Part shown: positions 3,430 through 59,659 of the stretch, in pieces
Layout: each line of letters opens with the position of its first letter
Position numbering within the stretch: position 1 is the first letter of the stretch
Made by a program: the position numbers and the translations under genes
Assembly (NCBI GenBank): GCA_965219455.1
Contig: OZ244744.1
Span: 4,544,001-4,608,000, forward strand
Direction of reading: 5' to 3'
Source: Candidatus Latescibacterota bacterium
GTDB taxonomy: Bacteria > Latescibacterota > UBA2968 > GCA-2709665
DNA length: 64,000 bases
The notes under the pieces: generated by a model
The model's database searches: none
What the model saw: only the letters and a program-made list of their open reading frames with translations
Told to the model about the DNA's origin: nothing

Positions 3430-3661
3430 AAGCGCTTGACCGGGCATGCGGAAAAACCAATATTAACAAGTGGATATCGATACATATGTTACGACACAAA
3501 AGCTTGAACGCGGGACGGACCTGCGATATATCCAGGTGTTGCTGGGGCATGCAAGCCCAAAAACCACACAGATCTATACTCGGGTGACGAATCGGGATCT
3601 CGCGAAAATCCAGAGCCCGCTGGATGCATTGATGGAAGAAAGGGAGGCAGTTTTTGATTAG
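3430..3661 (+). pseudogene. Tyrosine recombinase C-terminal remnant, copy 1
   Basis: ALDRACGKTNINKWISIHMLRH, then a frameshift/deletion, then [28 protein letters not shown] (box II and catalytic Tyr). Confidence 0.85.
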
Positions 3662-3795
3662 ATACGATGCCACCATAGGAAGCATTCCTGAACATGTTCG
3701 GGCTACAAGCTTCAAAGTGGGATGTTCCCGAACGTTCGCAGATCTTCGGATCAGGTACGCATTACCGTAACTGTTCGGTAATCCCGTAGTTAGCA
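3662..3795 (+). other. attI-like recombination element, copy 1 (crossover G|TT at 3789)
   Basis: Conserved in four copies. Hairpin tacg-cattaccg..cggtaat-ccgta precedes GTTAGCAGCC, the exact reverse complement of GGCTGCTAAC (6736) at the next attC. Confidence 0.8.
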
Positions 3796-4157
3796 GCCAT
3801 GCCAGTCGAATCCAATGATTGCGAATGACCTCCGTGCCGCTCTGGTTGCGGCGTTACCTGCACTCCTGCTTCCATCCTCATGACAGCGGGGAGGGTCGTT
3901 GAGGTCCTCGGGTTAAACGTGGGAGCGCTGGCAACCAGAGCGTTTTTCGTCCATTCTCTGACTTTGCTCCTGTTGCTCGGGACGATCCTGAGTTGACGGC
4001 GACAGCCGAGCTTGGGCTGCTGCTGGCCGGGTTCAGCCTGATATTTCTCGGCTTCTCGATCATGATGAGCGGCCGTGAATCATGGAAGGCCGTTCTCTGC
4101 GTTCTCCGCGGGCTCTGCGGGTAAAAAAAACCGGTACAGATTTTGGAGGTCATCGCT

Positions 4158-6416
4158 ATGATCAAGCCAAGTCACGAGTGGGTACGGCGGGCGCGCACCT
4201 TTCAGATAGAGCAATACCACCCGCCCTTCTGGCCCGACATCGACTTTGACGCGAAGCAGCTCGTCGATGTCGTGCGGAAATACCACGCCAACGCCATTTG
4301 GTTCGGCAGCGCGGGCAAATGGGCGGTCTTCCCCAATGAGTTCTTTCCCCCGCACCCTCAATTAAGTGAGCGCGACCTGCTCGCCGAGACCATCGCCGAG
4401 GCCCATGCGCGGGACGTGCGCGTCATCGGGTACATTCCCGTGGGGCACATTATTCCCGAAGACAACATGCTGATCCATCATCCGGAGTGGATGTACCGCC
4501 CCAGCCCCGAAGGCGACGCTCCTGTCCTGAGGCACCACGGCGGCGGATTTCACCGGCACGTCTGCTTCAACACACCGTACCGAGAGGCCATCTGCGCTTT
4601 CATCGCACAAGTGGTGGACCACGACGTCGACGCGATCTACACCGATTCTGCCTGTCCTTACCATTCGCACCACACCCCGCAGTCGCCCTTGTGCTACTGC
4701 GACTATTGCCTCGAGAAGTTCGAGAGGCAATTCGGCTGCCCAATGCCGTATGCACCCGATCCGCACAGCCTGCCTCGGGAAGACCAGGAGATGCTGGAAG
4801 AGTGGAGCCTGCAGTACGGCAGGATCGTCGGCGATGTCTTTCTCGAATTCGCCGCCGCGACGCGAAAGAAGAAGGACATCCCAGTGCTGACGCACGGCCT
4901 GGGTGTGGGCGACTGGCCCGAACGCAGGATCGTGGAGGTGCACGATGGACTCCTCTACGAGGCCGGGGGCGACTTCCTTCATCGGCTCGAGGCGGCCAGT
5001 CTGGCCGAGTCGTCGGGTTGGGCCATGTGGCAATACGTCGGCGCCTTGACGGGCTGGTCGCGGGCGCAGTGCTTCGGCATGGAACTCGTCGAGGAGGCGG
5101 CAGCCAGCTTTGCTTCCGGAGGGGCCGTCCTGGTGGCGTGCGGCGTGAACCTTTGGCTGTCGCCTCCCCATAAAGCCAATCGTGAGCTGGCGGAGCTCCT
5201 TGAGATCCTGGAGAGGAACGAGTCACTCTTCGAAGATCTCCACCCGTCACCGTTTGTTGCTATTCCGTTTGTTTTGCCGGTGCGGGTGTATGAGATGCTC
5301 GAGCGGGTGCGGTTCCGCGCCGAGCCCCTGGTGATGCGCGATCGTCGGCACGATGTCATCGGCCAGTCCAAGCAGGACCTCGCCGACCGTCCGGGGGAGC
5401 TCGAGGCCCCGCTCTCCGAGGCGGGCTATCTCGTGCGCACGCCCCCGCAGCAATCCTGCCGTCGCGGGGCCTTCTCGACCATGCTGGCCAACCATTTGCC
5501 GACATCGGTGATCGAGGAGCGGGTTCTCTCCGATCCAGCGGCGTTGGCAAAGTATCCCGTTCTGCTTCTGCCCAACGTCGGCCATCTCACGCGGGAGGAA
5601 GTCGAAGGCATCACGGAATATGTGAAGGCGGGCGGGCGGCTCCTGGCGACGTACCGGACGAGCCTGTACGGTGCCGAGCCCGATGAGATGCGCGACAACT
5701 TCGCCTTGGCGGACCTTCTGGGCGTGGACCGCGTGGACCCGAACCCCGACCAATTCGCTGATTACGAACAACACCTCTGGGCCGCCGGGACGTTCGACAC
5801 GTACGGCTGCTGCGTTCCAGGTCAATGGCTGGCCGAGGGGTGCTCGCATGAGCTGTGGCCGCTCAATCGGTTCGAGTTCGTCCAAGCGCGGCCGGGAACC
5901 GACGTGGTGGCGAACATCGTCTTCGGCGGGCGCGAGGACGACGCTCTGTGTCCCGCCGTCACCTGCCGGACGGTTGGCAAGGGCCGCGTCGTCTATCTGG
6001 CCGCGCCGGTGGAGGAGCTTCATTTCGAATATCGCCTGCTGGTGGTCCGCGATCTTCTGGGCGCCGTGGTGGATTGGCTCTACCCGGAGGGCCGGCCTCT
6101 GATGACCGATGGCCCGAACCAACTCGTGATGATTCCGAATGAGAAACCGGGAAGCCAAGTGTTGTTTCTGATCAATCACACCGGCGAGCGCGTCGAGCAT
6201 CTGCCGGGGATCTGGCCGCGCTTCAGCCCACAGTTTGACTATGTGACCACGATACCCGAAGTGAACCTGCGCTGGCAGCTCACGGAGCGGGGCACTCCTC
6301 GTCGCGTGTGGGACGTTTGCACGGGAGATGACCTGGAGGTCACGTTCGACGGAAACCACTTGGAAACCATATTAACGAACATTGGACAGTACGCGATGAT
6401 TGCCGCTGAGTTCTGA
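4158..6416 (+). CDS. Glycoside hydrolase-like protein (TIM-barrel plus beta-galactosidase trimerisation-like domain)
   Basis: ~750 aa; GGAGG RBS; DLLAE.IAEAHAR.VRVIGY, CFNTPYRE, CYCDYC..KF, YPVLLLPN, YVKAGG.LLAT motifs. Confidence 0.7.
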   Translation: MIKPSHEWVRRARTFQIEQYHPPFWPDIDFDAKQLVDVVRKYHANAIWFGSAGKWAVFPNEFFPPHPQLSERDLLAETIAEAHARDVRVIGYIPVGHIIPEDNMLIHHPEWMYRPSPEGDAPVLRHHGGGFHRHVCFNTPYREAICAFIAQVVDHDVDAIYTDSACPYHSHHTPQSPLCYCDYCLEKFERQFGCPMPYAPDPHSLPREDQEMLEEWSLQYGRIVGDVFLEFAAATRKKKDIPVLTHGLGVGDWPERRIVEVHDGLLYEAGGDFLHRLEAASLAESSGWAMWQYVGALTGWSRAQCFGMELVEEAAASFASGGAVLVACGVNLWLSPPHKANRELAELLEILERNESLFEDLHPSPFVAIPFVLPVRVYEMLERVRFRAEPLVMRDRRHDVIGQSKQDLADRPGELEAPLSEAGYLVRTPPQQSCRRGAFSTMLANHLPTSVIEERVLSDPAALAKYPVLLLPNVGHLTREEVEGITEYVKAGGRLLATYRTSLYGAEPDEMRDNFALADLLGVDRVDPNPDQFADYEQHLWAAGTFDTYGCCVPGQWLAEGCSHELWPLNRFEFVQARPGTDVVANIVFGGREDDALCPAVTCRTVGKGRVVYLAAPVEELHFEYRLLVVRDLLGAVVDWLYPEGRPLMTDGPNQLVMIPNEKPGSQVLFLINHTGERVEHLPGIWPRFSPQFDYVTTIPEVNLRWQLTERGTPRRVWDVCTGDDLEVTFDGNHLETILTNIGQYAMIAAEF

Positions 6417-6735
6417 TTGAATCATCGACCTTGCCAGGCTGTTATCCCAACGTCCTTCCCGGAAGCGGGATCGTAAGGCCTCACCACAGAGCCACAGAGG
6501 TCGAATCGTGGAGTAGAGGGGCAGTCGAATGTCTTCCCAGTTCGAATCATGATATGGTGAGACCGACCTCCATCTGCCACCTGGATGGGGGAGGGTCCCC
6601 TATTCCGACGCGATACCTCATCTGAAAGACTACGAAGGTCTTTGGATCCTAGAAGTCCACGAAAGATTCAGGGATAATTGGAGTGGATGCTTGGAAGTGA
6701 TGGAAAGGCTTTTTGAGGCAAAGAACCGAAGCACC

Positions 6736-6847
6736 GGCTGCTAACAGGTCCACTTGCGCTTCGGTCGCTTACGCTCCCTTCGGCCTGACGGCAACCCGCC
6801 TACGCTGACGCTTCGGCGGGTTCGCAAGTGGCCAGAAATCGTTAGCC
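6736..6847 (+). repeat. attC-like site
   Basis: GGCTGCTAAC...cacttgcg/cgcaagtg inner arms...G|TTAGCC at 6841. Confidence 0.85.
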
Positions 6848-6946
6848 GCATTGATTTCCATACGTAGTTAGACAGCACGAGACAGCCTGTCCGCACTTTT
6901 ACAGTCCAATTGCGACGCAATTCTTACAGCAACACAAGAGGATATA

Positions 6947-7867
6947 ATGAGTATTGCTACTGAACCCTGCCCTGGGCAGCTACGCCACCACTCTTACGCC
7001 GTGGTGCGCGGTTTGTTCGACGCAGCGACGACAAAACGGCTGCGCGAGATCTGTGAGCGAGTGCTGGAACAGTGGCGGCGCGCTCCTCGCTGTGACAATC
7101 CACCGGTGGGGCCCCAGGCCAATTACATGAGGCACCTGAACGACCCGGAATATCACCGCGATCACCCCGACGATCTCGCCTTTCTGCTCAATGCCATGGG
7201 GTCGCCCCAAGTTGTCGAATCGCTGAGCGCAGCCTTGGATGAAGAATTCCTCTTCGCCTTGAGCAGTCTCTACTGTAATCCGACCGGAGAAAGCCAGGAC
7301 GGATTTTGGCACAAGGACAAGATCGGTGCAGAAGCAGACGTATCCCGGAGACCGGAGACCGGAGCCGGGTTGCAGATGCAAATCGCATTGGTCCCTACCG
7401 ACGATCTCGAATTGGTGCCGGGGTCTCACCTGCGTGACTACTCCCCCGAAGAGCACGCGATCTGCGTCGCCGATGATGGGATCCACAACCGCTCGAACGA
7501 TATGCCTGGCGCCGTTCGTCTCCACCAGGAACCCGGTGACGCGGTGCTGTTTACCCAGTTGTGCATTCATCGGGGCCGCTATCACACCGACAAGCTCAGG
7601 CGCTCGTTGATGATCTCGGTAAAAAAACGGGCCGCCGCAGAGTTCACGATGCGCCAGCGGGGGCTGAACTACGCCAGTGACCAGCCATGGTTTTTGCTGC
7701 CGCAATACTTCGATGGCGTCAGTGAGGATGCGCGAGCGTTCTTCCAGGAATTCGTCGGCTTCTACGCCCCGCATTGGCGCGCCCGGCTGACGGAGGTGTT
7801 GAAGTACTCGAGTCTGGTACAAAGCCTGGTGGAAGCCGGCGAGCCGTACCCGTTTTTTGGTGAATGA
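6947..7867 (+). CDS. Phytanoyl-CoA dioxygenase (PhyH) family 2OG-Fe(II) oxygenase, copy 1
   Basis: WHKD, LELVPGSH, PGDAVLF....IHRG motifs. Confidence 0.85.
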   Translation: MSIATEPCPGQLRHHSYAVVRGLFDAATTKRLREICERVLEQWRRAPRCDNPPVGPQANYMRHLNDPEYHRDHPDDLAFLLNAMGSPQVVESLSAALDEEFLFALSSLYCNPTGESQDGFWHKDKIGAEADVSRRPETGAGLQMQIALVPTDDLELVPGSHLRDYSPEEHAICVADDGIHNRSNDMPGAVRLHQEPGDAVLFTQLCIHRGRYHTDKLRRSLMISVKKRAAAEFTMRQRGLNYASDQPWFLLPQYFDGVSEDARAFFQEFVGFYAPHWRARLTEVLKYSSLVQSLVEAGEPYPFFGE

Positions 7868-7945
7868 GAAGTCTGTCTGAATGAGTTAGCGGCTACATTT
7901 TGATACATAAGGCCCCGACAATGAACGGATACGAATTAATCACGA

Positions 7946-8047
7946 CGGCTAACACCGGCTTTACGCTTCGGGGCATCCGCCCCTCGGCCCTGCGGGCACA
8001 TGGGCCTTTGGGACTGGCCCACGTCGTAAAGCCAAGAACCGTTAACC
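7946..8047 (+). repeat. attC-like site
   Basis: CGGCTAAC complements GTTAGCCG (6841); ggctttacg/cgtaaagcc arms; GTT at 8041. Confidence 0.85.
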
Positions 8048-8143
8048 GAAAGCGGCACAAAGACAGAGCGGCCATCCCTGGCCGCCAAAAGCAAAGAATC
8101 GCTGATACACCTCGATCCAGCATTTCACCTGAGGTGTAAACCG

Positions 8144-9649
8144 ATGACAGACATCAATCCATCATCGCCGCTGCGGCTCGAATTGTTCGTTGATGACTGG
8201 CTTGTGGAACGCTTCGAGGGCGACGCGGCGCAACATCTGCACGAGCCGTTGGGCAAAGAGGTCGTGCTGATGAACGACAAGCCCTGGGAAGACACTTCTT
8301 TGGGCTACGTCTCGGTACTCAAGGACGGAGATCTGTTTCGCATGTACTACCGCGGCTATCATCACGGCAGCGGCGAAGACGCCCGAGGCGAACCGATGTG
8401 TTACGCGGAAAGCCGCGACGGCATCCGGTGGACGAAGCCAAACCTTGGTCTATTCAAATTCAGAGGATCCTCGGACAACAACATCGTCCTCGGTGGGGAT
8501 GGCAGAAAGTACCTTCCCACCGACAAATGGCAAGGCAAACTGGGAACCCACACTGGCCTAGGATGGCGCGGCGACATGGTCCCGTTCATCGACACCAGCC
8601 CAACTGTAAAACCCGACGCTCGGTACAAGGCACTGGTCCGCGGGGCTCGCGGCGCGCACCAGATTCCGGGAAAATACACCGATTACGGCATGTATCCCTT
8701 CAAGTCGCCGGACGGACTTCACTGGACGTTGATGACCGAAAAGCCCGTGATTACGAAGGGGCGATTCGATTCGCAGAACCTGGCGTTCTGGGATCCGGTT
8801 CGCGGCCGCTACGTCGCATTCGTGCGGGATCTGCTAAAAGGTTATATGCGCAATGTGCACATGGCCGTGTCGGACGATTTTGTGAACTGGACGGAACCCG
8901 TCCCGCTGAAGTATTCGGACAAGGTCGACCGGGAGATGTACACCAACGGCGTCCTTCCGTATGAACGCGCGCCACACATTCTGATCGCCTTTCCCACCGA
9001 ATACACGGACCGGTTTGCCGTCGCCCAGGTCCATCCCATCCTGATGACCAGCCGCGACGGCGGGCACTCGTTCCTGCGACGCCGCGAACCATTGATTCCC
9101 GGCAGTGCGCCCCAGCAACGCGATGGCAACCGCGCCAACTTCATGGCCCACGGTCTGGTTCGTGGCAATGAGCGCGAGTACTTCGTCTACGCCACCGAAG
9201 GGTACGGATATGAGGACCCGGAGTGGAAGAGGAAGTCATTCGTGCCGAGGACGCGGCTCAGGCGTTTTACGTTCCGTGTCGACGGATTCGTTTCCGTCCG
9301 ATTCGGTCCGGACGGCGGAACGATCGTGACAAAACCGTTTGTGCTCAACGGCAGCCAACTGGAGCTCAACTACATCGCCTGGCCCCGACCTGCCGGGGAA
9401 ATCCGGGTCGAAATCCAGGATGCAAACGGCCAGCCCTTGAAGGGCCTAACGCTGAACGACTGCAAGCCACTGCGGGGTGACGAAATCGACCACCCGGTCA
9501 CGTGGCAGTCCGGACTCACTCCCGGGGATTACGCCGGAAAGCCCGCGCGCCTACAGTTCCAATTCAAACACGCGGACCTTTTCAGCTTCAGGTTCGCAGT
9601 CGGTCGTATCACAAAAAACGGCGACGCAGAAATCGAGGGTGATAAGTAG
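8144..9649 (+). CDS. Five-bladed beta-propeller glycoside hydrolase-like protein
   Basis: LELFVDD, FRMYYRG, YAESRDGI.W.KPNLG, SPDGLHW, FDSQN.AFWD, R.DGFVS motifs. Confidence 0.7.
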   Translation: MTDINPSSPLRLELFVDDWLVERFEGDAAQHLHEPLGKEVVLMNDKPWEDTSLGYVSVLKDGDLFRMYYRGYHHGSGEDARGEPMCYAESRDGIRWTKPNLGLFKFRGSSDNNIVLGGDGRKYLPTDKWQGKLGTHTGLGWRGDMVPFIDTSPTVKPDARYKALVRGARGAHQIPGKYTDYGMYPFKSPDGLHWTLMTEKPVITKGRFDSQNLAFWDPVRGRYVAFVRDLLKGYMRNVHMAVSDDFVNWTEPVPLKYSDKVDREMYTNGVLPYERAPHILIAFPTEYTDRFAVAQVHPILMTSRDGGHSFLRRREPLIPGSAPQQRDGNRANFMAHGLVRGNEREYFVYATEGYGYEDPEWKRKSFVPRTRLRRFTFRVDGFVSVRFGPDGGTIVTKPFVLNGSQLELNYIAWPRPAGEIRVEIQDANGQPLKGLTLNDCKPLRGDEIDHPVTWQSGLTPGDYAGKPARLQFQFKHADLFSFRFAVGRITKNGDAEIEGDK

Positions 9650-9703
9650 GTCATCGATGATGGTGTGGAACTGCTTCCGGTTGGACGAATTCACAAAAAG
9701 TAA

Positions 9704-9970
9704 ATGGAAGTCCCGAACATGAGAGTTCCATCAACCCACCAAATTTCTCTTCTAGCGTTGGCCATAATCGCGCTGATCGCGCCGGATTGTTGCCTTGCCG
9801 AGCAACCGAAGATCGGCCGCGGCAAAAGCTGGGTTCGTTCGCATCCGTTTTGGATTAGCGGGCTGACGCAAAATGGAGCGTTGTACGACGTGGAAGAATA
9901 TCGTGGCGCGGGACTCAACACGTTGTTGGCTTGGAAACCGCGGCCCGTCTTGTTCGAAAAGTCGGTGGCC
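9704..9970 (+). pseudogene. 5' fragment of a secreted protein gene, truncated
   Basis: Signal-peptide-like start; the ORF runs into the IS91-like remnant after ~88 codons. Confidence 0.5.
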
Positions 9971-10218
9971 GCCCCTTTGCTCGTGTGATCGAGCTGCCCT
10001 TCACGACCGGTGGAGACACAGCGTCCCTGGACCCGTTCAAGGTGTTGAGGCTCGGGGTGGCGGGGTCAGGAGGCGTCATCGAATTCGGACTGAGGGAGGG
10101 GGGGCGTGGAGGCGCGATGGGCGGCGCGCGTGAGGCCAGGCCGACCCCGTCGAGGTAGGTGCGAATGGCCAGGGGCTCGGCCAGTGCGGCAATGATCTTC
10201 ATCTTGCCGCCACAGGCG
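9971..10218 (-). mobile_element. IS91/ISCR-like (Y2) transposase C-terminal remnant plus 3' flank
   Basis: CGGKMKIIAALAEPLAIRTYLDGVGLASRAPPIAPPRPP resembles the C-terminus of IS91-family transposases. Confidence 0.6.
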
Positions 10219-10322
10219 GATGACATGACGTGTGTAGTTCTGAGAATCGAGTAGATTTTCTGAAGACAAAGACATCCCAAGCTTGCATCCTGCAACCCCA
10301 CCCAACCACCGTGCCGCACGCC

Positions 10323-10398
10323 CGTTAACAAAAGATGTGCGGCTCACTACGTTCGCCCAAACCGCCTGCGGCGGCTTCGCACATCAAGCACGTTATGC
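10323..10398 (+). repeat. attC-like site
   Basis: CGTTAAC...gatgtgcg/cgcacatc...G|TTATGC at 10392. Confidence 0.85.
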
Positions 10399-10534
10399 GA
10401 AACTGGCGCAGAGCAGGAACCGCATCCACCCACCCCTTGTCAAGGCGGGCAAGATCAAACCCAGACCACCCTTGCGCTGAAAGTCACGTGAAACCTCTTA
10501 TGCACTTTACTCTGTCTCCAGGAGAGGACCAAGG

Positions 10535-10987
10535 ATGCCTGCCATTCGCTATCAGGCGGCAATAGTTGCAGACGATCGTCTACTTTTGCTGAAAGTCAAC
10601 GATCGAGGCACCGGAGAAACCTTCTGGGTGATCCCGGGTGGAGCCCGAGAGCCGAACGAAACGGAGGAAGAGTGTATTCGGCGTGAAGTGCTCGAAGAGA
10701 CGCACCTTTGTGTCGAAGTAGATTCGATGATCCTTGACGAGCAGGCGCCTGTTTATGACACGATATATGAGTGGCAGAAAACGTATAGGTGTCGAGTTGT
10801 TTCCGGAGAACCTCAGTCAGGAATTGAACCTGAAGTCGACACCGCAGATCATACCACTATTGCAGAGACTGGGTGGTTCGATCTGCGAACACCTACCACC
10901 TGGGATTCATTGGCGCTGAAGGATCCTATCACATTACCCTTGTTGCAACGCCTCAGGCGTATTTTGGGCTACTCTGGAGAGGGATAG
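10535..10987 (+). CDS. NUDIX hydrolase
   Basis: Nudix box GGAREPNETEEECIRREVLEETHL. Confidence 0.9.
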   Translation: MPAIRYQAAIVADDRLLLLKVNDRGTGETFWVIPGGAREPNETEEECIRREVLEETHLCVEVDSMILDEQAPVYDTIYEWQKTYRCRVVSGEPQSGIEPEVDTADHTTIAETGWFDLRTPTTWDSLALKDPITLPLLQRLRRILGYSGEG

Positions 10988-11106
10988 AGACTTCGGAACC
11001 ATTTCGCAGCTGATTCTGATTCGGGGAACAGCCACAACAAACCTGATATCGTTGCCCGCTCTACGCTGGCCCTATGAGGGCTTCGCCAGAAAGGGACCGC
11101 GCCAGA

Positions 11107-11252
11107 TTCGCATAACAACGGCACCCCCGGCTTCGGCGCGTCCGCGCCTCCGCGCAACCTGCCTGTCGCTGTCACGGCGCTTGCTTGAAGAAAATCGCGA
11201 GGGGCAAGCGCCGCGCCAGCTTGGCAGGTTCGTGGGTGCTTGACCGTTATGC
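11107..11252 (+). repeat. attC-like site (long type)
   Basis: TTCGCATAAC complements GTTATGCGAA (10392); GTT at 11246; close relative of the site at 26995. Confidence 0.85.
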
Positions 11253-11338
11253 GCCATGCCGTTTTTTTGTCTGATTCCTTATCGAAAAGGGGGCAAAAAA
11301 CAACCCAGCCCTACCCTGAAGCGCAAGTCATTAAGTAG

Positions 11339-11367
11339 TTGCATTTTCCTATAAATTATTGTAAAAT
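11339..11367 (+). promoter_or_regulatory. Sigma70-type promoter, probably leaderless transcript
   Basis: TTGCAT-17 nt-TAAAAT ending 6 nt before the ATG at 11374. Confidence 0.55.
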
Positions 11368-11373
11368 ATAATT

Positions 11374-11631
11374 ATGCCGGAGATTAGTCGATTTCTTGGG
11401 ATCGTGATTGGTATGTTTTATCGTGAGCACGGACCACCCCATTTTCACGCCACATACGGTGAATATGACATCACGGTCGATATTGAGACAGGCGTTGTGA
11501 CAGGCCAATTTCCTAGACGGGCTCTGAGGCATGTTCTGGAATGGTATGATCTGCACCAAAGAGAACTGATGGAGAATTGGGAACGCGCAGACCAGCGTCG
11601 TCCGTTGAATAAAATTGCACCCTTGGAGTGA
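11374..11631 (+). CDS. DUF4160 family protein (TA-like pair)
   Basis: MPEISRFLGIVI.M..REHGPPHFHA.YG...L..W pattern. Confidence 0.85.
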   Translation: MPEISRFLGIVIGMFYREHGPPHFHATYGEYDITVDIETGVVTGQFPRRALRHVLEWYDLHQRELMENWERADQRRPLNKIAPLE

Positions 11632-11635
11632 GAAG

Positions 11636-11905
11636 ATGATACCCCGTGTGATTGAAGCTCACTATGTAGGCGACTATGTGATCTGGCTCAAATTCAGTGA
11701 TGGTGTGGAGGGAGAGGTAGAGTTGAAAGATGAACTATGGGGTCCCGTTTTTGAGTCGTTGAAGGATAAAGAGGAATTCAAGAAATTCCGAGTTCACCCT
11801 GACCTACATACGATAATGTGGAAGAATGAAGCCGACTTCGCACCTGAATTTCTCTACAGTATTGTCAAAGTTACGGCCTGTGTGGGAAGTTTCTTTTTTC
11901 TGTAG
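11636..11905 (+). CDS. DUF2442 family protein (TA-like partner)
   Basis: Y.IWLKFSDG..G.V.L...L.GPVFE.LKD...F...TI.W.N.ADFAPE.LY pattern. Confidence 0.85.
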   Translation: MIPRVIEAHYVGDYVIWLKFSDGVEGEVELKDELWGPVFESLKDKEEFKKFRVHPDLHTIMWKNEADFAPEFLYSIVKVTACVGSFFFL

Positions 11906-12084
11906 CTCATTGAGAAGAAAAAGCAACTCTCCACCTCGGCGGTTTGACTTAATACCGCCGATTTATTTTATCTTGGAAGTTTTTGGAGGTCAAAATCAAG
12001 AAAACCAAAAGAAGGTTATGTCGGCCCCGTTATGGCTTTACCCTCTAGACGACGATCCTAGATGTATTAAAGTTCAGCGCGACG

Positions 12085-12417
12085 GTGGGATTGAGTGGAT
12101 TCCTCCTTCTACTCGTAACCTCGATTAAGTCGTGCGACATAGAGGAAAGCCAACTAGCTCAAATCGAGGCGATGCGAGGACAGTTGTCGCAAGCCAGTGC
12201 GCGAATGGAGCACGTCTTAACCGAGTTGCAGTTACAGAGCGAGCTAATGCGTGAACAGGGCGGCACTTCTATGGCTCTCCTTTCGACAATCGAAAGTATC
12301 GACGAGAGAGTTCAGACTATCTCTGTAGTGACGAACCGCATAGACATGATAGGCGATGAACTAAAGGAGACCCACGAGACTGTGGGTGCTTCCCATAAAA
12401 CGAAAACGCAAGATTAG
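12085..12417 (+). CDS. Hypothetical coiled-coil protein or fragment
   Basis: 110-aa ORF with hydrophobic N-terminus and heptad-like pattern. Confidence 0.35.
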   Translation: MGLSGFLLLLVTSIKSCDIEESQLAQIEAMRGQLSQASARMEHVLTELQLQSELMREQGGTSMALLSTIESIDERVQTISVVTNRIDMIGDELKETHETVGASHKTKTQD

Positions 12418-12747
12418 AACGAATGTCAGCGCCGTTTTCGTTCTTGACAGATCCACCGGTTTCTATTTGAACACGATAACAAAGAACTTCCGACAGACGT
12501 CTAGCTTGTACACAGATAGCCAATCTCTATTACAGAATCCGGGCTCAGGGTTGACCAGTTGCAAGGGAATTCGATGGTTCCCGATCCTTCAATTGTAGTG
12601 ATTGCTTTGCTCATTCTTGCTCCCGTTTTTGTGGGGATTCTCTTTAAGCTCTTCAGCCCCCGAATGCGCTCAGTTACCGATGCGCGAATGCTTATGGCAG
12701 ATGAACAACCGGCCTTCCCTACGTGCCCATATAGAGTGAGACAACCC

Positions 12748-13167
12748 AGGGGGTATCGCGCGAAAACGCGAAAAGCGTACCTTGGTCACGTCAGACGATT
12801 TGCCAATTATTGCGGCAAGGCACCTCGATCTTTTGGGGAGATGGAGGTCCGAAATTACGTGTATCACCTCCTTGAAACGGGAGCCTCGCACAGTTACGTC
12901 AATCAGTGCGTAAGTGCATTGAAATTCCTGTTCCTTCGAGTGTTGAAAGATCAGCATCCTCTTGAAAACCTGCCCCGTCCGAAAAAAGAGCACAAATGCG
13001 ACACACCTGCTTGAACGCGGGACCGACCTGCGATATATCCAGGTGTTCCTGGGCATGCAAGCCCAAAAACCACACAGATCTATGCTCGGGTGACGAATCG
13101 GGATCTCGCGAAAATCCAGAGCCCGCTGGATGCATTGATGGATGAAAGGGAGGCAGTTTTTGATTAG
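12748..13167 (+). pseudogene. Tyrosine recombinase remnant, copy 2 (N-terminal SAM-like domain fused to C-terminus, catalytic core deleted)
   Basis: RGYRAKTRKAYLGHVRRF...YVNQCVSALKFLF...LPRPKKEHK joined at ~12996 to [15 protein letters not shown]. Confidence 0.85.
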
Positions 13168-13301
13168 AGACGATGCTACCATAGGAAGCATTCCTGAACA
13201 TGTTCGGGCTACAAGCTTCAGCGTGGAATGTTCCCGAACGTTCGGAGATCCTCAGATCTGGTACGCATTAACGTACATGTTCGCCAATGCCGTAGTTATG
13301 C
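13168..13301 (+). other. attI-like element, copy 2 (G|TT at 13295)
   Basis: Homologous to copy 1; GTTATGCG complements CGCATAAC at 14001. Confidence 0.75.
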
Positions 13302-13365
13302 GCCAGCACGTGAGTACGACACTCATCAAGCCACCCGTTAATAAGCCACCCGTTAATCGACAACG

Positions 13366-14007
13366 TTGATCCAGATAGGCGACTATTCCTTGGACGATGT
13401 TCTGAAGAAGGCAGACGAACTACGGAAGGAAACTGATGACCTGATCCATCGAAGAGGGTTGGGTCAGATTCTTAGCTCTTTCGGGAGGGTGTGGTATAGA
13501 GGCAGCTACGAACTGAATACAATGGCATGGGCCGACCTAGACATCCACATAGTGATGGAACCTGATCCCTGGTCAGTTGATGAGTTCTTCAAGTTGGGGG
13601 CCCGAATTGCGTCACTTGAGGGGGTGATTTCGATGAAGTTCGATGATTGTGCTCATCATCCTCGGGACGTGCTTCCGGAGGGCCTCTATTGGGGTACACG
13701 AATGGCCAGGGGAAAGAGCGAAATTCCCTGGAAGATAGATTTATGGTCCACAAGATCTGAACTTCTTGAAAGGGACAAGCTTCGGATTGCGAGAGTAAAA
13801 GAGCGAATGACTGAGTCACATCGAAGGAAGATCCTCAAAATCAAACACTCGCTCCTGACACCTGAGGGGAGAACGCCGGACTCGACCGGAAGACATATTT
13901 ACGATGCCATTCTTTTTAAAGGTCTTGAAACTCTTGGGGAAGTTAAAGACTACCTCCGAGCCAAAGGCATAAAGGACTTGCAGGGAAAACACGTGCCGGA
14001 CGCATAA
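13366..14007 (+). CDS. Nucleotidyltransferase-fold hypothetical protein
   Basis: GSY.L.TM...DLDI and WKIDLW motifs; stop codon lies in the attC R'' box. Confidence 0.65.
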   Translation: MIQIGDYSLDDVLKKADELRKETDDLIHRRGLGQILSSFGRVWYRGSYELNTMAWADLDIHIVMEPDPWSVDEFFKLGARIASLEGVISMKFDDCAHHPRDVLPEGLYWGTRMARGKSEIPWKIDLWSTRSELLERDKLRIARVKERMTESHRRKILKIKHSLLTPEGRTPDSTGRHIYDAILFKGLETLGEVKDYLRAKGIKDLQGKHVPDA

Positions 14008-14087
14008 CACGACAGGCTGCGGCTCCGGGGCATTCGCCCCTTCGCTCAACCCGCTGCGCGGGTTCGCAGCCTGCGAGAACGTTAACA
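14001..14087 (+). repeat. attC-like site
   Basis: CGCATAAC...caggctgcg/cgcagcctg...G|TTAACA at 14081. Confidence 0.88.
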
Positions 14088-14276
14088 GAAAGCACGCGCC
14101 AAAATCAGAACCAGCGGCCATCCTGGCCGCCAAGAAAACCTTTGATATGCTTCTGTTGCCTGTTGGATTTTTCTACAGCGAATTGGATATGTGGAGTTTC
14201 TGCGACCACGACTGAGATATTCCGCGATTCTTCCGTATGGGCAATAGTTAGCCACCAACCGCGTTGGGAACAGACC

Positions 14277-17145: not shown

Positions 17146-18365
17146 ATGCGATCGGATGTTAGGTTTCCGATGACACAGAGGAGAGATGTGAAGGCGTACA
17201 AGGTAGGGCTACCCGGGCTGTTCCTCTTCTTATTTGCGCTCGCCGGCAGTTCCGAATCGATAAAGGAAGAAGGAGGAGCCTTGATGCTTAACGCGTGGGT
17301 TGTCTCGACCCTCAAGGCCGAAGGTCTAGCCCCGGAGCTGATTGCTGACCTAACGGCCAGAATAAGAAACCAGGACTATAAGAATATTCACAGCCTTTTG
17401 ATCGCTCGAAATGGCAACCTGGTTTATGAGGAGTACTTTCCTGGTGCCGATGGAAGGAGAGGAGTCGTCGAATTCGATAAGGAAACTCTGCACGATACAA
17501 GGTCTGTCTCGAAGAGCATCGCATCATCGTTGATAGGCATCGCAATTGACCAAGGATATATCGGGTCAGTTGATGAACCCATGTACCAATATTTTCCGGA
17601 CTACACGAACCACCTGACCGAGCAGAAGAAACGCGTAACTTTGGAACACCTGCTGTCAATGACGGCGGGGTTCAAATGGGATCAATCCGGTTCACATCAG
17701 TCCGAACTCGGATCGGCCAACACGGAAGCGCAAATGGAAAACAGCTTTGATTTCATCGACTACGTGCTGTCCGCCGATATGTCAGCCACAGCTTTGATTT
17801 CATCGACTACGTGCTGTCCGCCGATATGTCAGAGGAGGGAGAGCGTTTCAATTACAATAGCGGCTGCGCCATTCTCCTCGCTGGTGTGATCAGGAACGTA
17901 TCGGGAATGCACGCAGATAAGTTCGCTGACAAGTATCTCTTTGGGCCATTGGGCATCGATCGTAATGAATGGTGGCGAACAAAGACCGGTTTACCACAGA
18001 CACATGCGGGTCTGCGGCTTCGCCCTCGGGATATGGCCAAGATCGGACAGCTTTATCTCAACAATGGGAGATGGAAAGGTCTGCAAATTCTACCCGCATC
18101 GTGGGTTGAGGAGTCCATAAAGCCACACTTCGTAAACGATCGATATGGATACGCCTGGTGGCTCGACCGCTTTCCTTTCCACGAGGGATCCGTCAAGAGT
18201 TACGTCGCTGAGGGCAACGGAGGACAATTCATTTTTGTAATCCCAGACTTGGATTTAGTGGTCGTCTTTACAGGCGGCAACTACGGCTCCTCCACTGCGA
18301 ACCAGGCTTTCAAAATCGTAATCAATCACGTATTGAAAGCTGTTAGCCAAGAAACGAGTGAGTAG
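17146..18365 (+). pseudogene. Serine hydrolase (class C beta-lactamase-like), frameshifted
   Basis: SVSKS (SxxK), LLSMTAG, FNYNSG, GNGGQ; split by a 45-bp tandem duplication (17741-17785 and 17788-17832). Confidence 0.85.
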
Positions 18366-22996: not shown

Positions 22997-23103
22997 GTCG
23001 GCTAACAACACGTTTGCCGCTACGGCGGCCTCCGCCGCCTTGGCCTTCGGCAACCCACCTTCGCTACGCTTCGGTGGGTTCGCAAGTGGCGAGAACGTTG
23101 GCC
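22997..23103 (+). repeat. attC-like site
   Basis: GTCGGCTAAC; 3' half identical to the 21351 site; GTT at 23097. Confidence 0.85.
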
Positions 23104-23124
23104 GAAATTGCCCCACCGCCTTAG

Positions 23125-24805
23125 CCCCAATTATTCACAAAAAAGGTAGTTTCCTTACCCAAGTCATTGTATTATATTATGGTTAGGTGAATAACCATAC
23201 AACAATGAACTGGGAGGAAACTACCGTGAAAGTTCAAGATAATCAACTCGCACTTCCTTTCGCAAGTGTTTCGGGCAAGCCGGTGGAAGCCGTCTTCGAT
23301 GGCGGTGTGCTCACCAGCGATATGGGGTTGATGCTGCTGCGAGAGGTGGCGTCCAAAATCGGCATCCTGTCTCGGATCGTCGAGGCGTTAACGGACCGTC
23401 GGCATCCAAGTTATGTGGATCACACGATGATGGACCTGATCAGCCAGCGTGTCTTTCAGATCGCGTGCGCGTATGAAGATGCGAACGATTGCAATGCGTT
23501 GCGCGAGGACCCTGCGTTCAAGGCGGCCTGTGATCGGTTGCCGATATCAGGGGCGCCGTTGGCCAGCCAACCCACGATGAGTCGATTGGAAAACGGGATT
23601 CGTCGCAGGGACTTATATCGTATTGCCGAGGCCCTTGTGGACGGATTTATCGCGTCCTACAAAAGGCCTCCCGACGCGGTCGTTCTGGATATCGATGACA
23701 CCGATGACGAGGTTCACGGCAAGCAACAGTTGTCGTTGTTCAATGGCTATTACGATGAACGCTGTTACTGTCCCTTGCACATTTATGAAGGCCGGACAGG
23801 AAGACTGATCACGACGCTGCTGCGTCCGGGCGCCCGTCCTACCGGCAAACAGATTGTCAGCATTCTTAAGCGACTGGTGAAAATCCTTCGTAAGGCGTGG
23901 CCGGACGTGCGTATCTTTTTGCGTGGCGATGGCCATTTTTCCTGTCCTGAGGTCCACGACTTTTGCGACGAGCAAGACGTGTATTTTGTGCTGGGACAGA
24001 CGGGCAATGCCAGGCTTGCACAACGGGGACACGCGTTGATCGAGCAGGCAAAGGCCCAGTATCGGGAAACCGGACAGCCCTTGCAGTTATTTACCTGTTT
24101 CGCTTACCAGGCAGATACTTGGGCCGTGCCAAGGCGCATCATCTACAAAGCTGAAATCACCGCTTCCGGACAAGCCAATACACGCTTTGTCGTCACCAAC
24201 CTGAAAAGTAGCCAGCCCTCATTCATCTACAAAACCGTCTATTGCGCGCGCGGCAGGATGGAAAACTTCATCAAGAATCACAAAACCTTCCTCCATTCCG
24301 ATCGTACCTCCTGCCACACCTTCGAAGCCAATCACTTCCGTCTCTTCCTGCATAGTGCCGCTTATGTCTTGATGCATACCCTTACCGAAAAAGGACTCCG
24401 GGCTACCCAATGGACGCACGCCCAGTTTAATACCATTCAGAATCGCATTCTCAAAGTCGCCGGGCGAGTGTCCGAACTCAAGACCAAAATCAAACTCCAT
24501 TTGCCAACATCATTTCCCTTGAAACACCTTTATGACACCATCCTCTGTAATTTGGCAAAGGCATATCCATAACGCCGTTTCGCGCCGGCCGATCCATCCC
24601 TTTCTCATCGCCACAAAGTAAGACCAAGGCATCCGTCTGTCCTTTCCACACCCTAAATAAAGAACTCGACACCCCTCAATGCTGACGGCACATCCAATAT
24701 TACTCATCATCGCGTCACCAACACGTCATTCGAATATTTCCCCTCCTCCAGAACACTTTCTGCTTCCACAGACACTGCTCTATTCATTTTCATGAATTAA
24801 TCGGG
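23125..24805 (+). mobile_element. IS1380-family insertion sequence
   Basis: TTAG target duplication (23121-23124, 24806-24809); imperfect TIRs CCCCAATTATTCA / CCCGATTAATTCA. Confidence 0.88.
23187..24572 (+). CDS. IS1380-family DDE transposase
   Basis: FDGG.LTSD.G, LASQPT.SRLEN, LDIDDTDD..HG.QQ, LRGDGHF, Y..RG.MEN.IK motifs. Confidence 0.93.
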   Translation: MNNHTTMNWEETTVKVQDNQLALPFASVSGKPVEAVFDGGVLTSDMGLMLLREVASKIGILSRIVEALTDRRHPSYVDHTMMDLISQRVFQIACAYEDANDCNALREDPAFKAACDRLPISGAPLASQPTMSRLENGIRRRDLYRIAEALVDGFIASYKRPPDAVVLDIDDTDDEVHGKQQLSLFNGYYDERCYCPLHIYEGRTGRLITTLLRPGARPTGKQIVSILKRLVKILRKAWPDVRIFLRGDGHFSCPEVHDFCDEQDVYFVLGQTGNARLAQRGHALIEQAKAQYRETGQPLQLFTCFAYQADTWAVPRRIIYKAEITASGQANTRFVVTNLKSSQPSFIYKTVYCARGRMENFIKNHKTFLHSDRTSCHTFEANHFRLFLHSAAYVLMHTLTEKGLRATQWTHAQFNTIQNRILKVAGRVSELKTKIKLHLPTSFPLKHLYDTILCNLAKAYP

Positions 24806-25871: not shown

Positions 25872-25978
25872 TTCGGCCAACACGAGCATCTGCGCTGCGC
25901 TCCACTTCGTTCCGCTCGGGGCTTCGCCCAACCCGCCCAAAAAGCCGGGCGGGTTCGCAGGTTTGCGGGCCGTTAACC
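25872..25978 (+). repeat. attC-like site
   Basis: TTCGGCCAAC complements GTTGGCCGAA (23097); GTT at 25972. Confidence 0.85.
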
Positions 25979-26010
25979 GAACGCGGCGCTGAGTCTGAAA
26001 GATCCTTTAA

Positions 26011-38387: not shown

Positions 38388-38470
38388 GTCTAACACCGTG
38401 CCCCCGCCTTCGGGTTTACGCCCGTCCCCCAACCTGCTTCGCAGGTTCACGGCCCGTGAGATCGTTGACT
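38388..38470 (+). repeat. attC-like site
   Basis: GTCTAAC complements GTTAGAC (37571); GTT at 38464. Confidence 0.8.
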
Positions 38471-38566
38471 GCACGCAAGAAATCAAAGAATGGCACACAC
38501 CGACTACCGTGGGGTTCCTTTTTCGTATGTCATAATAACTTTTTCACAAAGCAATGTGGGGACTGG

Positions 38567-38998: not shown

Positions 38999-39312
38999 CG
39001 AACTATGCATACTGCTGGATTTCAAGTGCATTGTCAGCCCGTATAATGTGTATGCCCACGACGGTAATTGGGCTGAGGGAGTATCACGTGTGGAATGATG
39101 ATCCAAGGAAGGCGACTGCCTCCACGGATTTTGTTCATGGCTTTGTAGGACGGGAGGACGCGGTGAGCTATCAAGACAAGGCTCTCGATGATATTGTTGA
39201 ATGGATGCGGTTCGAGTGAGTGGCGATATTTGAGACTTGGGATTTCAGTTTCACGACTAAATTGCTCCCGTTTTTTGTGCCCCAATGGGTTGGCGAAATC
39301 CGATAGCACAGG

Positions 39313-39567
39313 GAGAGGTCGGTACAGACCGCGTTTGACCGGGCTTGCGAGAGAGCGAAAATTGTCCAGCGGATACCGACGCTACGGCATTCCTTTGCGA
39401 CACACCTGCTTGAACGCGGGACGGACCTGCGATATATCCAGGTGTTGCTCGGGCACGTAAGACCAAAGACCACACAGATCTATACTCGGGTGACGAATGG
39501 GGATCTCGCGAAAATCCAGAGCCCGCTGGATGCATTGATGGAAGAAAGGGAGGCAGTTTTTGATTAG
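39313..39567 (+). pseudogene. Tyrosine recombinase C-terminal remnant, copy 3
   Basis: [17 protein letters not shown]...[37 protein letters not shown]. Confidence 0.88.
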
Positions 39568-39697
39568 AGACCCACCATAGGAAGCATTCCTGAACATGTT
39601 CGGGCTACAAGCTTCAGCGTGGAATGTTCCCGAACGTTCGCAGATCTTCGGATCAGGTACGCATTACCGTAACTGTTCGGTAATACCGTAGTTAGCA
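39568..39697 (+). other. attI-like element, copy 3 (G|TT at 39691)
   Basis: GTTAGCAGAA complements TTCTGCTAAC at 44147. Confidence 0.8.
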
Positions 39698-39827
39698 GAA
39701 ATCGCCCCCACCACCCCCAGAAGAACCGTGATTGCGTGCAAAAATAGCCCCACCCTCCCCACCATCAACACTCGTTCCTATACTTGGATTTATGCGACAG
39801 CGGAGAAATCCCGAGTCAGATCTTCCC

Positions 39828-44146: not shown

Positions 44147-44301
44147 TTCTGCTAACACGGGCTATTCGCTCCGGTCGCTTCGCTCCCTCCGGCCCTTCGG
44201 GCACATTCCCCTTTGTCACGTCGCTTGCTGAGAGACGCAAGCGCCGCGCCAATCCGGCTTCGCCGGACCGGGGAACGTCGTATAGCCCGGGAACGTTATC
44301 T
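44147..44301 (+). repeat. attC-like site (long type)
   Basis: cgggctat/atagcccg arms; GTT at 44295. Confidence 0.85.
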
Positions 44302-44330
44302 GCAATTGCCCCAGAGATCGCGATGTCTAC

Positions 44331-46058: not shown

Positions 46059-46169
46059 GCAATTAATAGAGCATTGATTTCCATACGTAGTTAGACAGCA
46101 CGAGACAGCCTGTCCGCACTTTTACAGTCCAATTGCGACGCAATTCTTACAGCAACACAAGAGGATATA

Positions 46170-47090
46170 ATGAGTATTGCTACTGAACCCTGCCCTGGGC
46201 AGCTACGCCACCACTCTTACGCCGTGGTGCGCGGTTTGTTCGACGCAGCGACGACAAAACGGCTGCGCGAGATCTGTGAGCGAGTGCTGGAACAGTGGCG
46301 GCGCGCTCCTCGCTGTGACAATCCACCGGTGGGGCCCCAGGCCAATTACATGAGGCACCTGAACGACCCGGAATATCACCGCGATCACCCCGACGATCTC
46401 GCCTTTCTGCTCAATGCCATGGGGTCGCCCCAAGTTGTCGAATCGCTGAGCGCAGCCTTGGATGAAGAATTCCTCTTCGCCTTGAGCAGTCTCTACTGTA
46501 ATCCGACCGGAGAAAGCCAGGACGGATTTTGGCACAAGGACAAGATCGGTGCAGAAGCAGACGTATCCCGGAGACCGGAGACCGGAGCCGGGTTGCAGAT
46601 GCAAATCGCATTGGTCCCTACCGACGATCTCGAATTGGTGCCGGGGTCTCACCTGCGTGACTACTCCCCCGAAGAGCACGCGATCTGCGTCGCCGATGAT
46701 GGGATCCACAACCGCTCGAACGATATGCCTGGCGCCGTTCGTCTCCACCAGGAACCCGGTGACGCGGTGCTGTTTACCCAGTTGTGCATTCATCGGGGCC
46801 GCTATCACACCGACAAGCTCAGGCGCTCGTTGATGATCTCGGTAAAAAAACGGGCCGCCGCAGAGTTCACGATGCGCCAGCGGGGGCTGAACTACGCCAG
46901 TGACCAGCCATGGTTTTTGCTGCCGCAATACTTCGATGGCGTCAGTGAGGATGCGCGAGCGTTCTTCCAGGAATTCGTCGGCTTCTACGCCCCGCATTGG
47001 CGCGCCCGGCTGACGGAGGTGTTGAAGTACTCGAGTCTGGTACAAAGCCTGGTGGAAGCCGGCGAGCCGTACCCGTTTTTTGGTGAATGA
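46170..47090 (+). CDS. PhyH-family dioxygenase, copy 2
   Basis: Identical translation to 6947-7867. Confidence 0.85.
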   Translation: MSIATEPCPGQLRHHSYAVVRGLFDAATTKRLREICERVLEQWRRAPRCDNPPVGPQANYMRHLNDPEYHRDHPDDLAFLLNAMGSPQVVESLSAALDEEFLFALSSLYCNPTGESQDGFWHKDKIGAEADVSRRPETGAGLQMQIALVPTDDLELVPGSHLRDYSPEEHAICVADDGIHNRSNDMPGAVRLHQEPGDAVLFTQLCIHRGRYHTDKLRRSLMISVKKRAAAEFTMRQRGLNYASDQPWFLLPQYFDGVSEDARAFFQEFVGFYAPHWRARLTEVLKYSSLVQSLVEAGEPYPFFGE

Positions 47091-47168
47091 GAAGTCTGTC
47101 TGAATGAGTTAGCGGCTACATTTTGATACATAAGGCCCCGACAATGAACGGATACGAATTAATCACGA

Positions 47169-47270
47169 CGGCTAACACCGGCTTTACGCTTCGGGGCATC
47201 CGCCCCTCGGCCCTGCGGGCACATGGGCCTTTGGGACTGGCCCACGTCGTAAAGCCAAGAACCGTTAACC
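47169..47270 (+). repeat. attC-like site (copy of 7946)
   Basis: Same sequence as the 7946 site; GTT at 47264. Confidence 0.85.
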
Positions 47271-47447
47271 GAAAGCGGCGCAAGTGTTCCCAGCCACATT
47301 ACCCCAAAAAATCGCGCACAAAAGGCAACAACCACCTTATTTTGAAGTCTTCCACGGCGAATAAACTGTATCAAGTTTTTCGGCTACGAATGGAATATGC
47401 CGAACTTTCTCCGCAGAATCACAAGTCAGGCCGTGCGGAGGTCCACT

Positions 47448-49230: not shown

Positions 49231-49231
49231 G

Positions 49232-55708: not shown

Positions 55709-55718
55709 TAGAGTCTAC

Positions 55719-56414: not shown

Positions 56415-56419
56415 ATGAA

Positions 56420-56587
56420 TACCGGGGCAGACTTGCTGTTCTCGAATTGCAGCGTGACCGCGCAGGGCAAGCGATACACATTGTGTGGGGCATCCCGGCC
56501 GGAAATACCTCACCCGCCGTTGTAGTGACGGCCTATCGCCCCAACAGACAGGATTGGGACGAGGGTTTCATCAGGAGGCGAACATGA
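56420..56587 (+). pseudogene. DUF4258-like toxin, C-terminal half
   Basis: LQRDRAG.AIHIVWGIP.G.TSPAVVVTAYRP...W...F; ATGA overlap with the next gene. Confidence 0.6.
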
Positions 56588-56799: not shown

Positions 56800-56860
56800 A
56801 GCACCTCAACTTCCCGAAGGACATTGTCCATCGCCCGGACATTAAAAGGAACCATATAGC

Positions 56861-57500: not shown

Positions 57501-57640
57501 CGGGGCGCGTCAGGTCCGCAGCACGGGATTGTCCCACCTGCCCCAGGAGAGCCGCGCTGCCCATAATCTCTTTTTCAGCCCGTTTTCGGCGGACATAGGG
57601 CGTCGGCCACACGCCTCGTGGCCAGGAATAGCAGGTCGTG

Positions 57641-59303: not shown

Positions 59304-59461
59304 TCTGCGGTTTCGTTTGCCCTGTTTAACAAGCTCATCCGGCGGACTGTGGAGAATCCCGGCTGTTTCGACCAGCCTTGACGGGGGTGAAGCTGAGTCA
59401 AATTCAAATTACATGCGCCGGCATCGGGAAATAACCTTCATGTTGGGCAATTCTGCATACG

Positions 59462-59527
59462 GATCTCGCAAGAACCCAAAGGCACCTTGATGTAATAATG
59501 AATGAGAATGAAGCAGAATGCGATTAA
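59462..59527 (+). pseudogene. Tyrosine recombinase extreme C-terminus, diverged copy 4
   Basis: DLARTQRHLDVIMNENEAECD* aligns with [21 protein letters not shown] of copies 1 and 3. Confidence 0.6.
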
Positions 59528-59659
59528 GGACGGTAGCTGATTAATTGCATTCCTGAACATCTTCGGCTACAAGCTCCAACGTAACATGCTTTCGAACGTT
59601 CGCAGATCCTCCGACCAGATACGAATTACCGTTGCTGTTTTGTAATACCGTAGTTATAG
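59528..59659 (+). other. attI-like element, copy 4 (G|TT at 59653)
   Basis: gcattcctgaacat..gctacaagct..cgaacgttcgcagatc..taccgta GTTATAG; complements CTATAAC at 60370. Confidence 0.75.

Follow-up and report, generated by a model that had tools for sequence, protein, structure and literature searches.

A chromosomal cassette array in Candidatus Latescibacterota probably run by a tyrosine recombinase that lacks the IntI insertion and has its attachment site 3' of its gene

The stretch of DNA analysed here, the window, comprises 64,000 nucleotides (G000:C1:4544001-4608000) of the single 5.84 Mb contig that forms the genome of a Candidatus Latescibacterota bacterium. Its first part is ordinary chromosomal DNA, in which an attC covariance model finds no match (positions 1 to 3312), and from about 3.8 kb onwards it consists of attC sites arrayed on one strand, among open reading frames (ORFs) that are mostly on the plus strand. 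The array continues beyond the window to about position 4,736,800 of the genome and totals some 190 kb. Our subject is a unit that recurs in it: the 3' remnant of a tyrosine recombinase gene joined to an element of about 130 bp, found four times in the window (Table 1) and twice more in the rest of the genome, at 4,733,671-4,733,805 and 2,047,697-2,047,888. A sequence-only reading of the window had proposed that a distinct clade of recombinases runs the array from a site on the 3' side of its gene, an interpretation that the present analysis supports.

Table 1. Features of the window, in window coordinates; a slash marks the putative crossover point.
Feature	Position	Strand	Remarks
Non-array chromosomal flank	1-3312		Pfam; synteny with same-genus G011 and G013 up to the recombinase
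Family-B DNA polymerase-like gene	323-2449	minus	Pfam
Peptidoglycan-binding-domain gene	2566-3312	plus	Pfam
Copy 1, recombinase 3' remnant	3426-3661	plus	Last ~55 codons in frame, stop 3659-3661
Copy 1, attI-like site, ~130 bp	3662-3791	plus	Crossover G3789/TT
First cassette	3790-6855	plus	Glycosyl-hydrolase-like ORF 4143-6416; ends in attC 6740-6855
attC array	6740-63479	plus	30 covariance-model matches, E <= 0.001, every one on the plus strand
Copy 2, recombinase pseudogene	12745-13167	plus	Codons ~105-193 fused to last ~55 codons, frameshifted
Copy 2, site	13168-13297	plus	Crossover G13295/TT; next attC 14003-14095
Copy 3, recombinase remnant	39307-39567	plus	86-codon 3' piece, in-frame stop further upstream
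Copy 3, site	39568-39693	plus	Crossover G39691/TT; next attC 44151-44309
Copy 4, remnant and site	59462-59655	plus	Short, diverged; about the last 20 codons; crossover G59653/TT; next attC 60371-60460

The array sites are attC in the structural sense, that is, an array of R''-L''...L'-R' units on one strand. A covariance model (R1) was built from 22 of them and is thus trained on this window only. The L''/L' stem shows covariation in seven of seven predicted pairs, and the bottom strands fold (z -3.9 and -3.7) into a structure with R box, unpaired spacer, bulged L stem and three-way junction. When an nhmmer profile grown from seven attC sites was run against the genome, it returned 43 plus-strand sites, 40 of them within 4,550,737-4,736,810 and three near 2.54 Mb; at the recombinase copy at 2,047,697-2,047,888 it gave only a weak match (E 0.54), about 0.9 kb downstream.

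The element was recovered by a repeat search as one family (D5), at 3701-3815, 13207-13321, 39603-39717 and 59565-59679, and in three of these four copies a longer homology (family D1) reaches into the 3' end of the recombinase. Repeat search and alignments thus bear out the initial observation that four recombinase remnants each precede a conserved element of about 130 bp. Copy 2 follows a truncated cassette (11247-12042 plus 12042-12745), and the translation of its N-terminal piece ends in LPRPKKE, as had been read before. The copy 3 remnant lies within a cassette that starts after attC 38389-38478, and scores 80.6 bits against TIGR02249 over model positions 229-315; the copy 4 site is 76% identical to that of copy 1.

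All copies of the element share the same right boundary. In an alignment of 17 site copies from eight genomes or records (this genome, three congeners, another genus represented by L031 and L034, and the Gemmatimonadota-labelled contig L044), homology stops in every copy at ...CCGTA-G/TTA, with at least 13 different sequences beyond; the sequence-only reading had placed the end of homology at this GTT core. It had also noted that the sequence following the G is complementary to the R'' box of a downstream attC, and this holds for all four window copies, the partner being each time the next downstream covariance-model attC: 10 bp for 3789/6740, 8 bp for 13295/14003, 14 of 15 for 39691/44151 and 7 bp for 59653/60371. 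A caveat entered at the time is equally valid, namely that the R'' at 14003 also complements the GTT at 11246, over 8 bp. Among adjacent attC-to-attC neighbours, read by eye, about 10 of 26 pairs are complementary over at least eight contiguous bases, and several are poor, so that the sites are cassette boundaries at least as good as ordinary attCs. The Gemmatimonadota-labelled contig (L044, JAPPFJ010000002.1) carries three site copies, 90-94% identical, and seven window-type attCs, through either mis-binning or transfer.

Three inverted GAAC/GTTC boxes (CCTGAACATGTTCGGG, CCCGAACGTTCG, CCGTAACTGTTCGG) and a small GATC palindrome lie within the element. At its end, just before G/TT, comes an inverted repeat whose arms of 12/13 bp are separated by an 8-bp spacer. 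The sequence-only reading saw here a hairpin attI downstream of the co-oriented gene. Its position is upheld by the order of gene, 3' site and array, which is strict across genera; the hairpin is without support from covariation, as none of 11 pairs in the palindrome shows compensatory changes among 14 distinct copies and the variation is one-sided. The predicted hairpin is of low stability (-7.6 kcal/mol, z -2.8), and the GAAC/GTTC boxes may be read equally well as protein-binding sites in duplex DNA, comparable to the several IntI-binding boxes of attI1, or as a hairpin.

Since copies 2-4 lie inside the array, between the GTT of an upstream attC and a GTT of their own, the recombinase gene could be seen as ordinary cassette content and the element as its degenerate attC, with no special attI needed; the element does end in an attC-like GTTA core, and it has in common with the attC L' arm a GTTCG motif. 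This we consider improbable. The attC covariance model gives no match to the element at E <= 0.1, the element is not an attC, and it has no R''/L'' arm complementary to its own 3' end. It is kept with the gene over 74-100% identity while the cassettes change, all 17 copies ending at G/TT with varied cassettes and the site adjoining the integrase gene, as an attI does; moreover copy 1 and the copies in G011, L031 and L034 come after non-cassette DNA. In distant homologs, the 130-190 bp after the stop codon are unrelated in sequence, yet they too close with GTTA and give way to the beginning of a cassette: L075, whose homolog is 46% identical, is homologous to the cassette behind window copy 3 from a GTT about 180 bp past the stop onwards, and L081 is homologous to a different window cassette from about 10 nt beyond the junction.

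The geometry of the palindrome also resembles that of simple tyrosine-recombinase core sites. The terminal inverted repeat might then be a double-stranded core site of the Xer/dif-like type, or of the IMEX type (integrative mobile element exploiting Xer), cut by a Xer-like enzyme within its spacer, inside TAACTGTT, and unrelated to cassette capture, and in keeping with this the recombinase aligns with XerA end to end and gap-free, and has the XerA family as its best NCBIfam model. Such a site is nonetheless very improbable, because homology breaks at G/TT past the right arm and not within the spacer, spacer and both arms are linked to the gene in 17 of 17 copies, what follows downstream is in each case a cassette whose R'' matches, and the genome already has XerC and XerD.

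The start of the array can be compared with that of related genomes. Window positions -1139 to 3313 are syntenic with G011 (87% identity) and G013 (90%). At the orthologous place, G011 has a recombinase gene of 376 codons, intact except for two 1-nt insertions near codon 107 and followed by the ~130-bp element and then by attCs; window positions 3426-3792 align with the 3' end of this near-intact gene and its site, the flanks being orthologous. Copy 1, at the origin of the array, is what an internal deletion has left of the array's own recombinase gene. Three congeners present the same succession of common flank, gene or remnant, and site, with different first cassettes. In G013, a truncated cassette X, recombinase codons 107-373 and a site come directly after the origin site. 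G013 has the copy-2 unit without the 392-bp internal deletion, and the order is swapped between window unit 11247-13295 and block 3790-11246, with junctions at the site GTT, which is the behaviour expected of an insertion point. The polymerase-like gene that directly adjoins the array origin has an exonuclease domain, and its position is kept in congeners.

Full-length proteins were retrieved by a search with the 86-residue remnant. One of them, P0008 (376 aa), matches the remnant with 83% identity and the N-terminal piece of copy 2 with 93%. Locus L031 has an intact 376-codon gene, 78% identical to P0008, followed by an element 74% identical to that of window copy 1. We call this group clade N. 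Its Pfam domains, Phage_int_SAM_4 and Phage_integrase, form an architecture in common with VchIntIA and canonical IntI; it differs from canonical IntI in the absence of about 42 residues at the I2 region, in scores below the TIGR02249 cut-off and in the presence of an N-terminal domain of about 95 aa. Taking the curated TIGR02249 cut-off of 265 bits as the definition of IntI, P0008 scores 213.1 bits, L031 214.2 and L098, from the clade S described below, 224, against 464.6 for a control IntI from G017, and the matches to P0008 and L031 come in two stretches that skip model positions ~176-234. VchIntIA (2a3v), the best solved-structure match (E 5e-43), also aligns in two stretches, with 25 residues against 67 in the chain, and a direct alignment has about 41 columns that are filled only in the four canonical IntI shown. 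Clade N recombinases are without the IntI-specific insertion (I2 region near patch III).

A quick maximum-likelihood tree (52 rows) unites the 12 canonical IntI, all from this phylum, in one clade (Shimodaira-Hasegawa-like approximate likelihood ratio test, SH-aLRT, 100) that excludes P0008; P0008 groups with IS91-linked paralogs and database relatives. All three checks proposed with the sequence-only reading were run: whether an intact homolog carries the insertion and groups with IntI, whether homologs are linked to attC arrays, and whether a canonical intI elsewhere explains the array. Intact homologs exist, lack the insertion and fall outside the IntI clade; the other two results are given below.

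The best NCBIfam model is NF040815 (XerA/'integron integrase'), whose cut-off of 220 bits the scores straddle: P0008 (222.7), P0013 (227.3) and P0012 (220.1) are at or over it, P0011 (211.8), L031 (215.7) and P0017 (207.3) under it. Against the XerC and XerD equivalogs P0008 scores 189 and 181 bits, below the cut-offs of 335 and 330; the genome's own XerD (366 bits) and XerC (337 bits) are the only other recombinases of this kind there. The earlier label 'XerD-like' was imprecise, the nearest solved structure being VchIntIA and the best family model XerA/integron-integrase; the distinction from the IntI clade is supported. The XerA structures 5hxy and 4a8e align with clade N colinearly and without gaps. 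XerA acts on dif in chromosome resolution, whereas the clade N gene heads a cassette array and encodes an extra N-terminal domain, in a genome with separate XerC and XerD.

This extra domain of about 95 residues is present in 39 of 39 aligned relatives of 345-437 aa; it has the signature GRxW...W.IP and a Trp that is invariant among them. Its model has a predicted local distance difference test (pLDDT) of 83-90 over residues 11-70 and the order bb-a-bb-a. Against Pfam HARP (PF07443) the domain scores 13.4 bits (E 0.057; gathering score 25), and homolog P0084 carries a precomputed PF07443 match. Foldseek matches to the model are weak, the best being XPB (2fwr_B, E 0.064, prob 0.96), with SMARCAL1 HARP (4o66) at E 0.2; VIA gave Z 4.5 (root mean square deviation 3.3, 62 aligned) and Z 3.9 (1.7, 44 aligned), unrelated rows being equally good, and a look-up in the ESM Atlas was uninformative, with only a 0.79 match to an unnamed cluster. 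The model thus points weakly, and as a lead only, to a HARP/XPB-DRD-like domain, which would help the recombinase to recognise folded or branched DNA.

Homologs at E <= 1e-70 occur in 25 of 168 genomes of the phylum, and the loci whose protein has the N-terminal domain were retrieved. We counted the Latescibacterota loci with at least 2 kb of downstream sequence (n=15), omitting four more with less than 1.1 kb: R1-type attCs are found in 12 of the 15, downstream of the gene and co-oriented with it, and upstream in none. The linkage of homologs to attC arrays that the sequence-only reading called for is thereby borne out, four of the 12 positive loci resting on a single attC match and two of those matches being weak (E 3e-4 and 1e-3). 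A second group without the insertion, clade S (about 300 aa, no N-terminal domain; genomes G106, G102, G105, G107, G016 and G101; 56-57% identity to P0008), has R1-type attCs at six of six loci, with the gene divergent in five (L097-L100, L107) and inside the array in one (L101). The divergent position at the array head is the one known from classical integrons. In the quick tree clade S is placed, with modest support, next to canonical IntI (SH-aLRT 82). As for a canonical intI elsewhere that would explain the array, a profile search found none over the cut-off in the genome itself or in 14 congeners, 13 of which have R1-type attCs.

Close to clade N are the accessory recombinases of IS91-family elements, paralogs 46-51% identical that are also without the IntI insertion and belong to the same wider radiation; some are in or beside integrons or arrays. 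Downstream of these paralogs lies an IS91 transposase (NF033538, 466 bits); they have no N-terminal domain and occur in multiple copies with identical ends, whereas clade N genes have no transposase and are single at array origins. A 2.5-kb IS91 element of G017 (L026 7505-11234, L027, L028) consists of a 284-aa tyrosine recombinase and a 399-aa IS91 transposase; it lies about 180 bp past the stop of a canonical 338-aa IntI, two of its three identical copies come after intI copies, and on the right it terminates in a hairpin with CCGTTA behind it. In G020, a 314-aa paralog (L029, G020:C1:2064000-2080000) is one of six near-identical copies and sits in an attC array, with 13 same-strand matches on both sides, which suggests that these elements insert into arrays.

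Because the IS91-linked paralogs are so close, one rival account stays alive: the arrays would have been built by a canonical IntI, since lost or acting in trans, and the recombinase with its 130-bp site would be a small IS91-related mobile element, a passenger that targets the GTT of attI or attC and in this way builds up in arrays. The multi-copy paralogs of G020, one of them inside an attC array, and the G017 elements directly after canonical intI are in its favour; so are the six copies over three array regions of the present genome, the GTT on both sides of internal copies 2 and 3, and the occurrence of canonical IntI in the phylum. We hold it to be unlikely, though it is the main rival, weakened by the constant order of gene, site and array and by the syntenic origin, where the gene adjoins non-array DNA. 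The unit has no second conserved end, its upstream boundaries varying from copy to copy and the gene being truncated at different codons; no transposase follows the gene; and the attCs are all on the 3' side in 12 of 12 positive loci, which is not expected of random insertion. Canonical IntI was found in none of the 15 genomes of the genus, and R1-type attCs are found within about 9 kb at none of six canonical IntI loci (L026, L027, L102-L105), a count that is weak evidence, since R1, trained on this window only, may be biased. Repeat scans of four canonical IntI loci found attC-like repeats, of another kind, in L105 only.

In our view the array is probably an integron-like platform on which a tyrosine recombinase other than IntI acts at an attachment site 3' of its own gene. 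The window would then cover the initial 60 kb of a cassette array that is chromosomal and sedentary and whose integrase belonged to clade N: a recombinase of about 375 aa, with an N-terminal domain of about 95 aa, a core-binding domain of the SAM_4 type and a catalytic domain that lacks the IntI-specific insertion. Its gene would be oriented the same way as the cassettes, with the attachment site in the ~130 bp immediately 3' of the stop codon. The clade N protein would catalyse recombination of site with attC and of attC with attC: circular cassettes would recombine at the G/TT that ends the site, the left part of which would stay constant, and after integration the cassette's own TT... start would adjoin the site. 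Copy 1 would be the platform's own gene, destroyed by deletion; copies 2-4 and the two elsewhere would be decayed duplicates of gene plus site, moved by rearrangement or by site-by-attC events.

Several observations weigh against this interpretation. No intact recombinase copy was found in this genome, where all six are pseudogenes; the platform here is dead and, there being no working copy, the array would now be frozen unless a recombinase is supplied in trans. The close paralogs of the recombinase belong to IS91-family elements. Three clade N loci (L030, L079 and L081) have no attC model match, the sole homolog outside the phylum with context, Tenacibaculum L035, has no array, and direct-repeat scans of these four loci found no array-like repeats. 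Canonical IntI over the cut-off is present in 17 of 168 phylum genomes, and both kinds of recombinase in G017, G098, G150 and G153. In an attC survey that sampled 151 of the 168 genomes, 45 of the 60 attC-bearing genomes have no clade N or clade S gene at E <= 1e-70; the link is therefore one of the gene with the start of an array, and not with the presence of arrays. The same N-terminal domain architecture occurs in many proteins of Bacillota, where integrons are reported to be nearly absent, so that the family as a whole need not be array-linked. A placement of clade N as sister group of IntI is not rejected: an approximately unbiased (AU) test of a tree joining IntI and the P0008 clade, a group named after the tree had been seen, gave p 0.069. 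Finally, the systematic survey of Cury 2016 (PMC4889954) describes 50 domain-less recombinases beside attC sites, four of which, each with fewer than three attCs, it places between IntI and Xer, and concludes that domain-less recombinases beside attC are not integron integrases.

Among known systems, the co-oriented integrons of Treponema/Spirochaetota and of archaea are like clade N in gene orientation, in a site 3' of the gene, in insertion at G/TT and in a long one-strand array. Their integrases are stated to carry the IntI-specific domain, whereas clade N has no insertion and an extra N-terminal domain. By the standard criteria, which require the intI_Cterm profile, the array would score as a cluster of attC sites lacking integron integrases (CALIN), with the difference that its origin carries the remnant of one particular recombinase together with a conserved site. 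Ghaly 2022, citing Messier & Roy 2001, calls the additional domain of IntI necessary; Escudero 2016 has the IntI-specific domain serve the single-strand pathway, with the ancestral double-strand activity retained, and a preprint ties the additional domain to single-strand recombination. Our literature search, which left subscription journals and supplementary files outside, found no paper on Latescibacterota integrons, HARP-bearing recombinases or domain-less integron integrases.

The array itself holds several further features. A cassette with a PhyH dioxygenase has been duplicated almost exactly, together with its own attC (6848-8055 and 46071-47278, the first 300 nt being 100% identical); the repeats at 6848 and 46071 had been considered as an insertion sequence (IS), an idea dropped once they proved to be this duplicated cassette. 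Other duplicated stretches are 35168/47348 (98%), 28304/55920 (96%) and 29561-30084/42285-42808 (70-75%), and a perfect 45-nt tandem duplication (spacing 47) lies within a cassette ORF at 17741-17832. Between attCs 23001-23111 and 25876-25986, a DDE transposase gene (23187-24572; DDE_Tnp_1_4, 518 bits) looks like an IS inserted into the array. Many cassette starts, for example 3790, 11247, 14090, 32348 and 39692, have in common leader-like sequences such as TTA...GCCATGC, AATCGCCCCCACCACCCC...GTGATTGCGTGCAAA and AAGCACGCGCCAAAATC...GGCCGCCAAGAAA. The same sequences are seen at first cassettes in other genera (L075, L077, L081) and may represent a conserved 5' cassette module.

Our results suggest that more than one kind of enzyme can drive gene capture of the integron type. 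It is an even call whether the IntI insertion is dispensable for running a cassette array, clades N and S both being integron integrases for their own type of attC; if so, the HARP/DRD-like N-terminal domain modelled for clade N may take over the recognition of folded attC. Clade N was found heading arrays in several families of the phylum, and the trio of protein, site and attC, which comes from environmental bacteria that are harmless, is directly testable. As the field recognises integron integrases by their extra domain, an insertion-less clade that heads arrays of up to some 190 kb would change integron detection: if the interpretation is true, current tools miss whole integron classes, and part of the unexplained excess of CALIN acquires a cause. 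Integron-type gene capture would then predate the I2 domain or be independent of it, and a clade without this domain would alter the picture of evolution from Xer-like enzymes to single-strand recombination.

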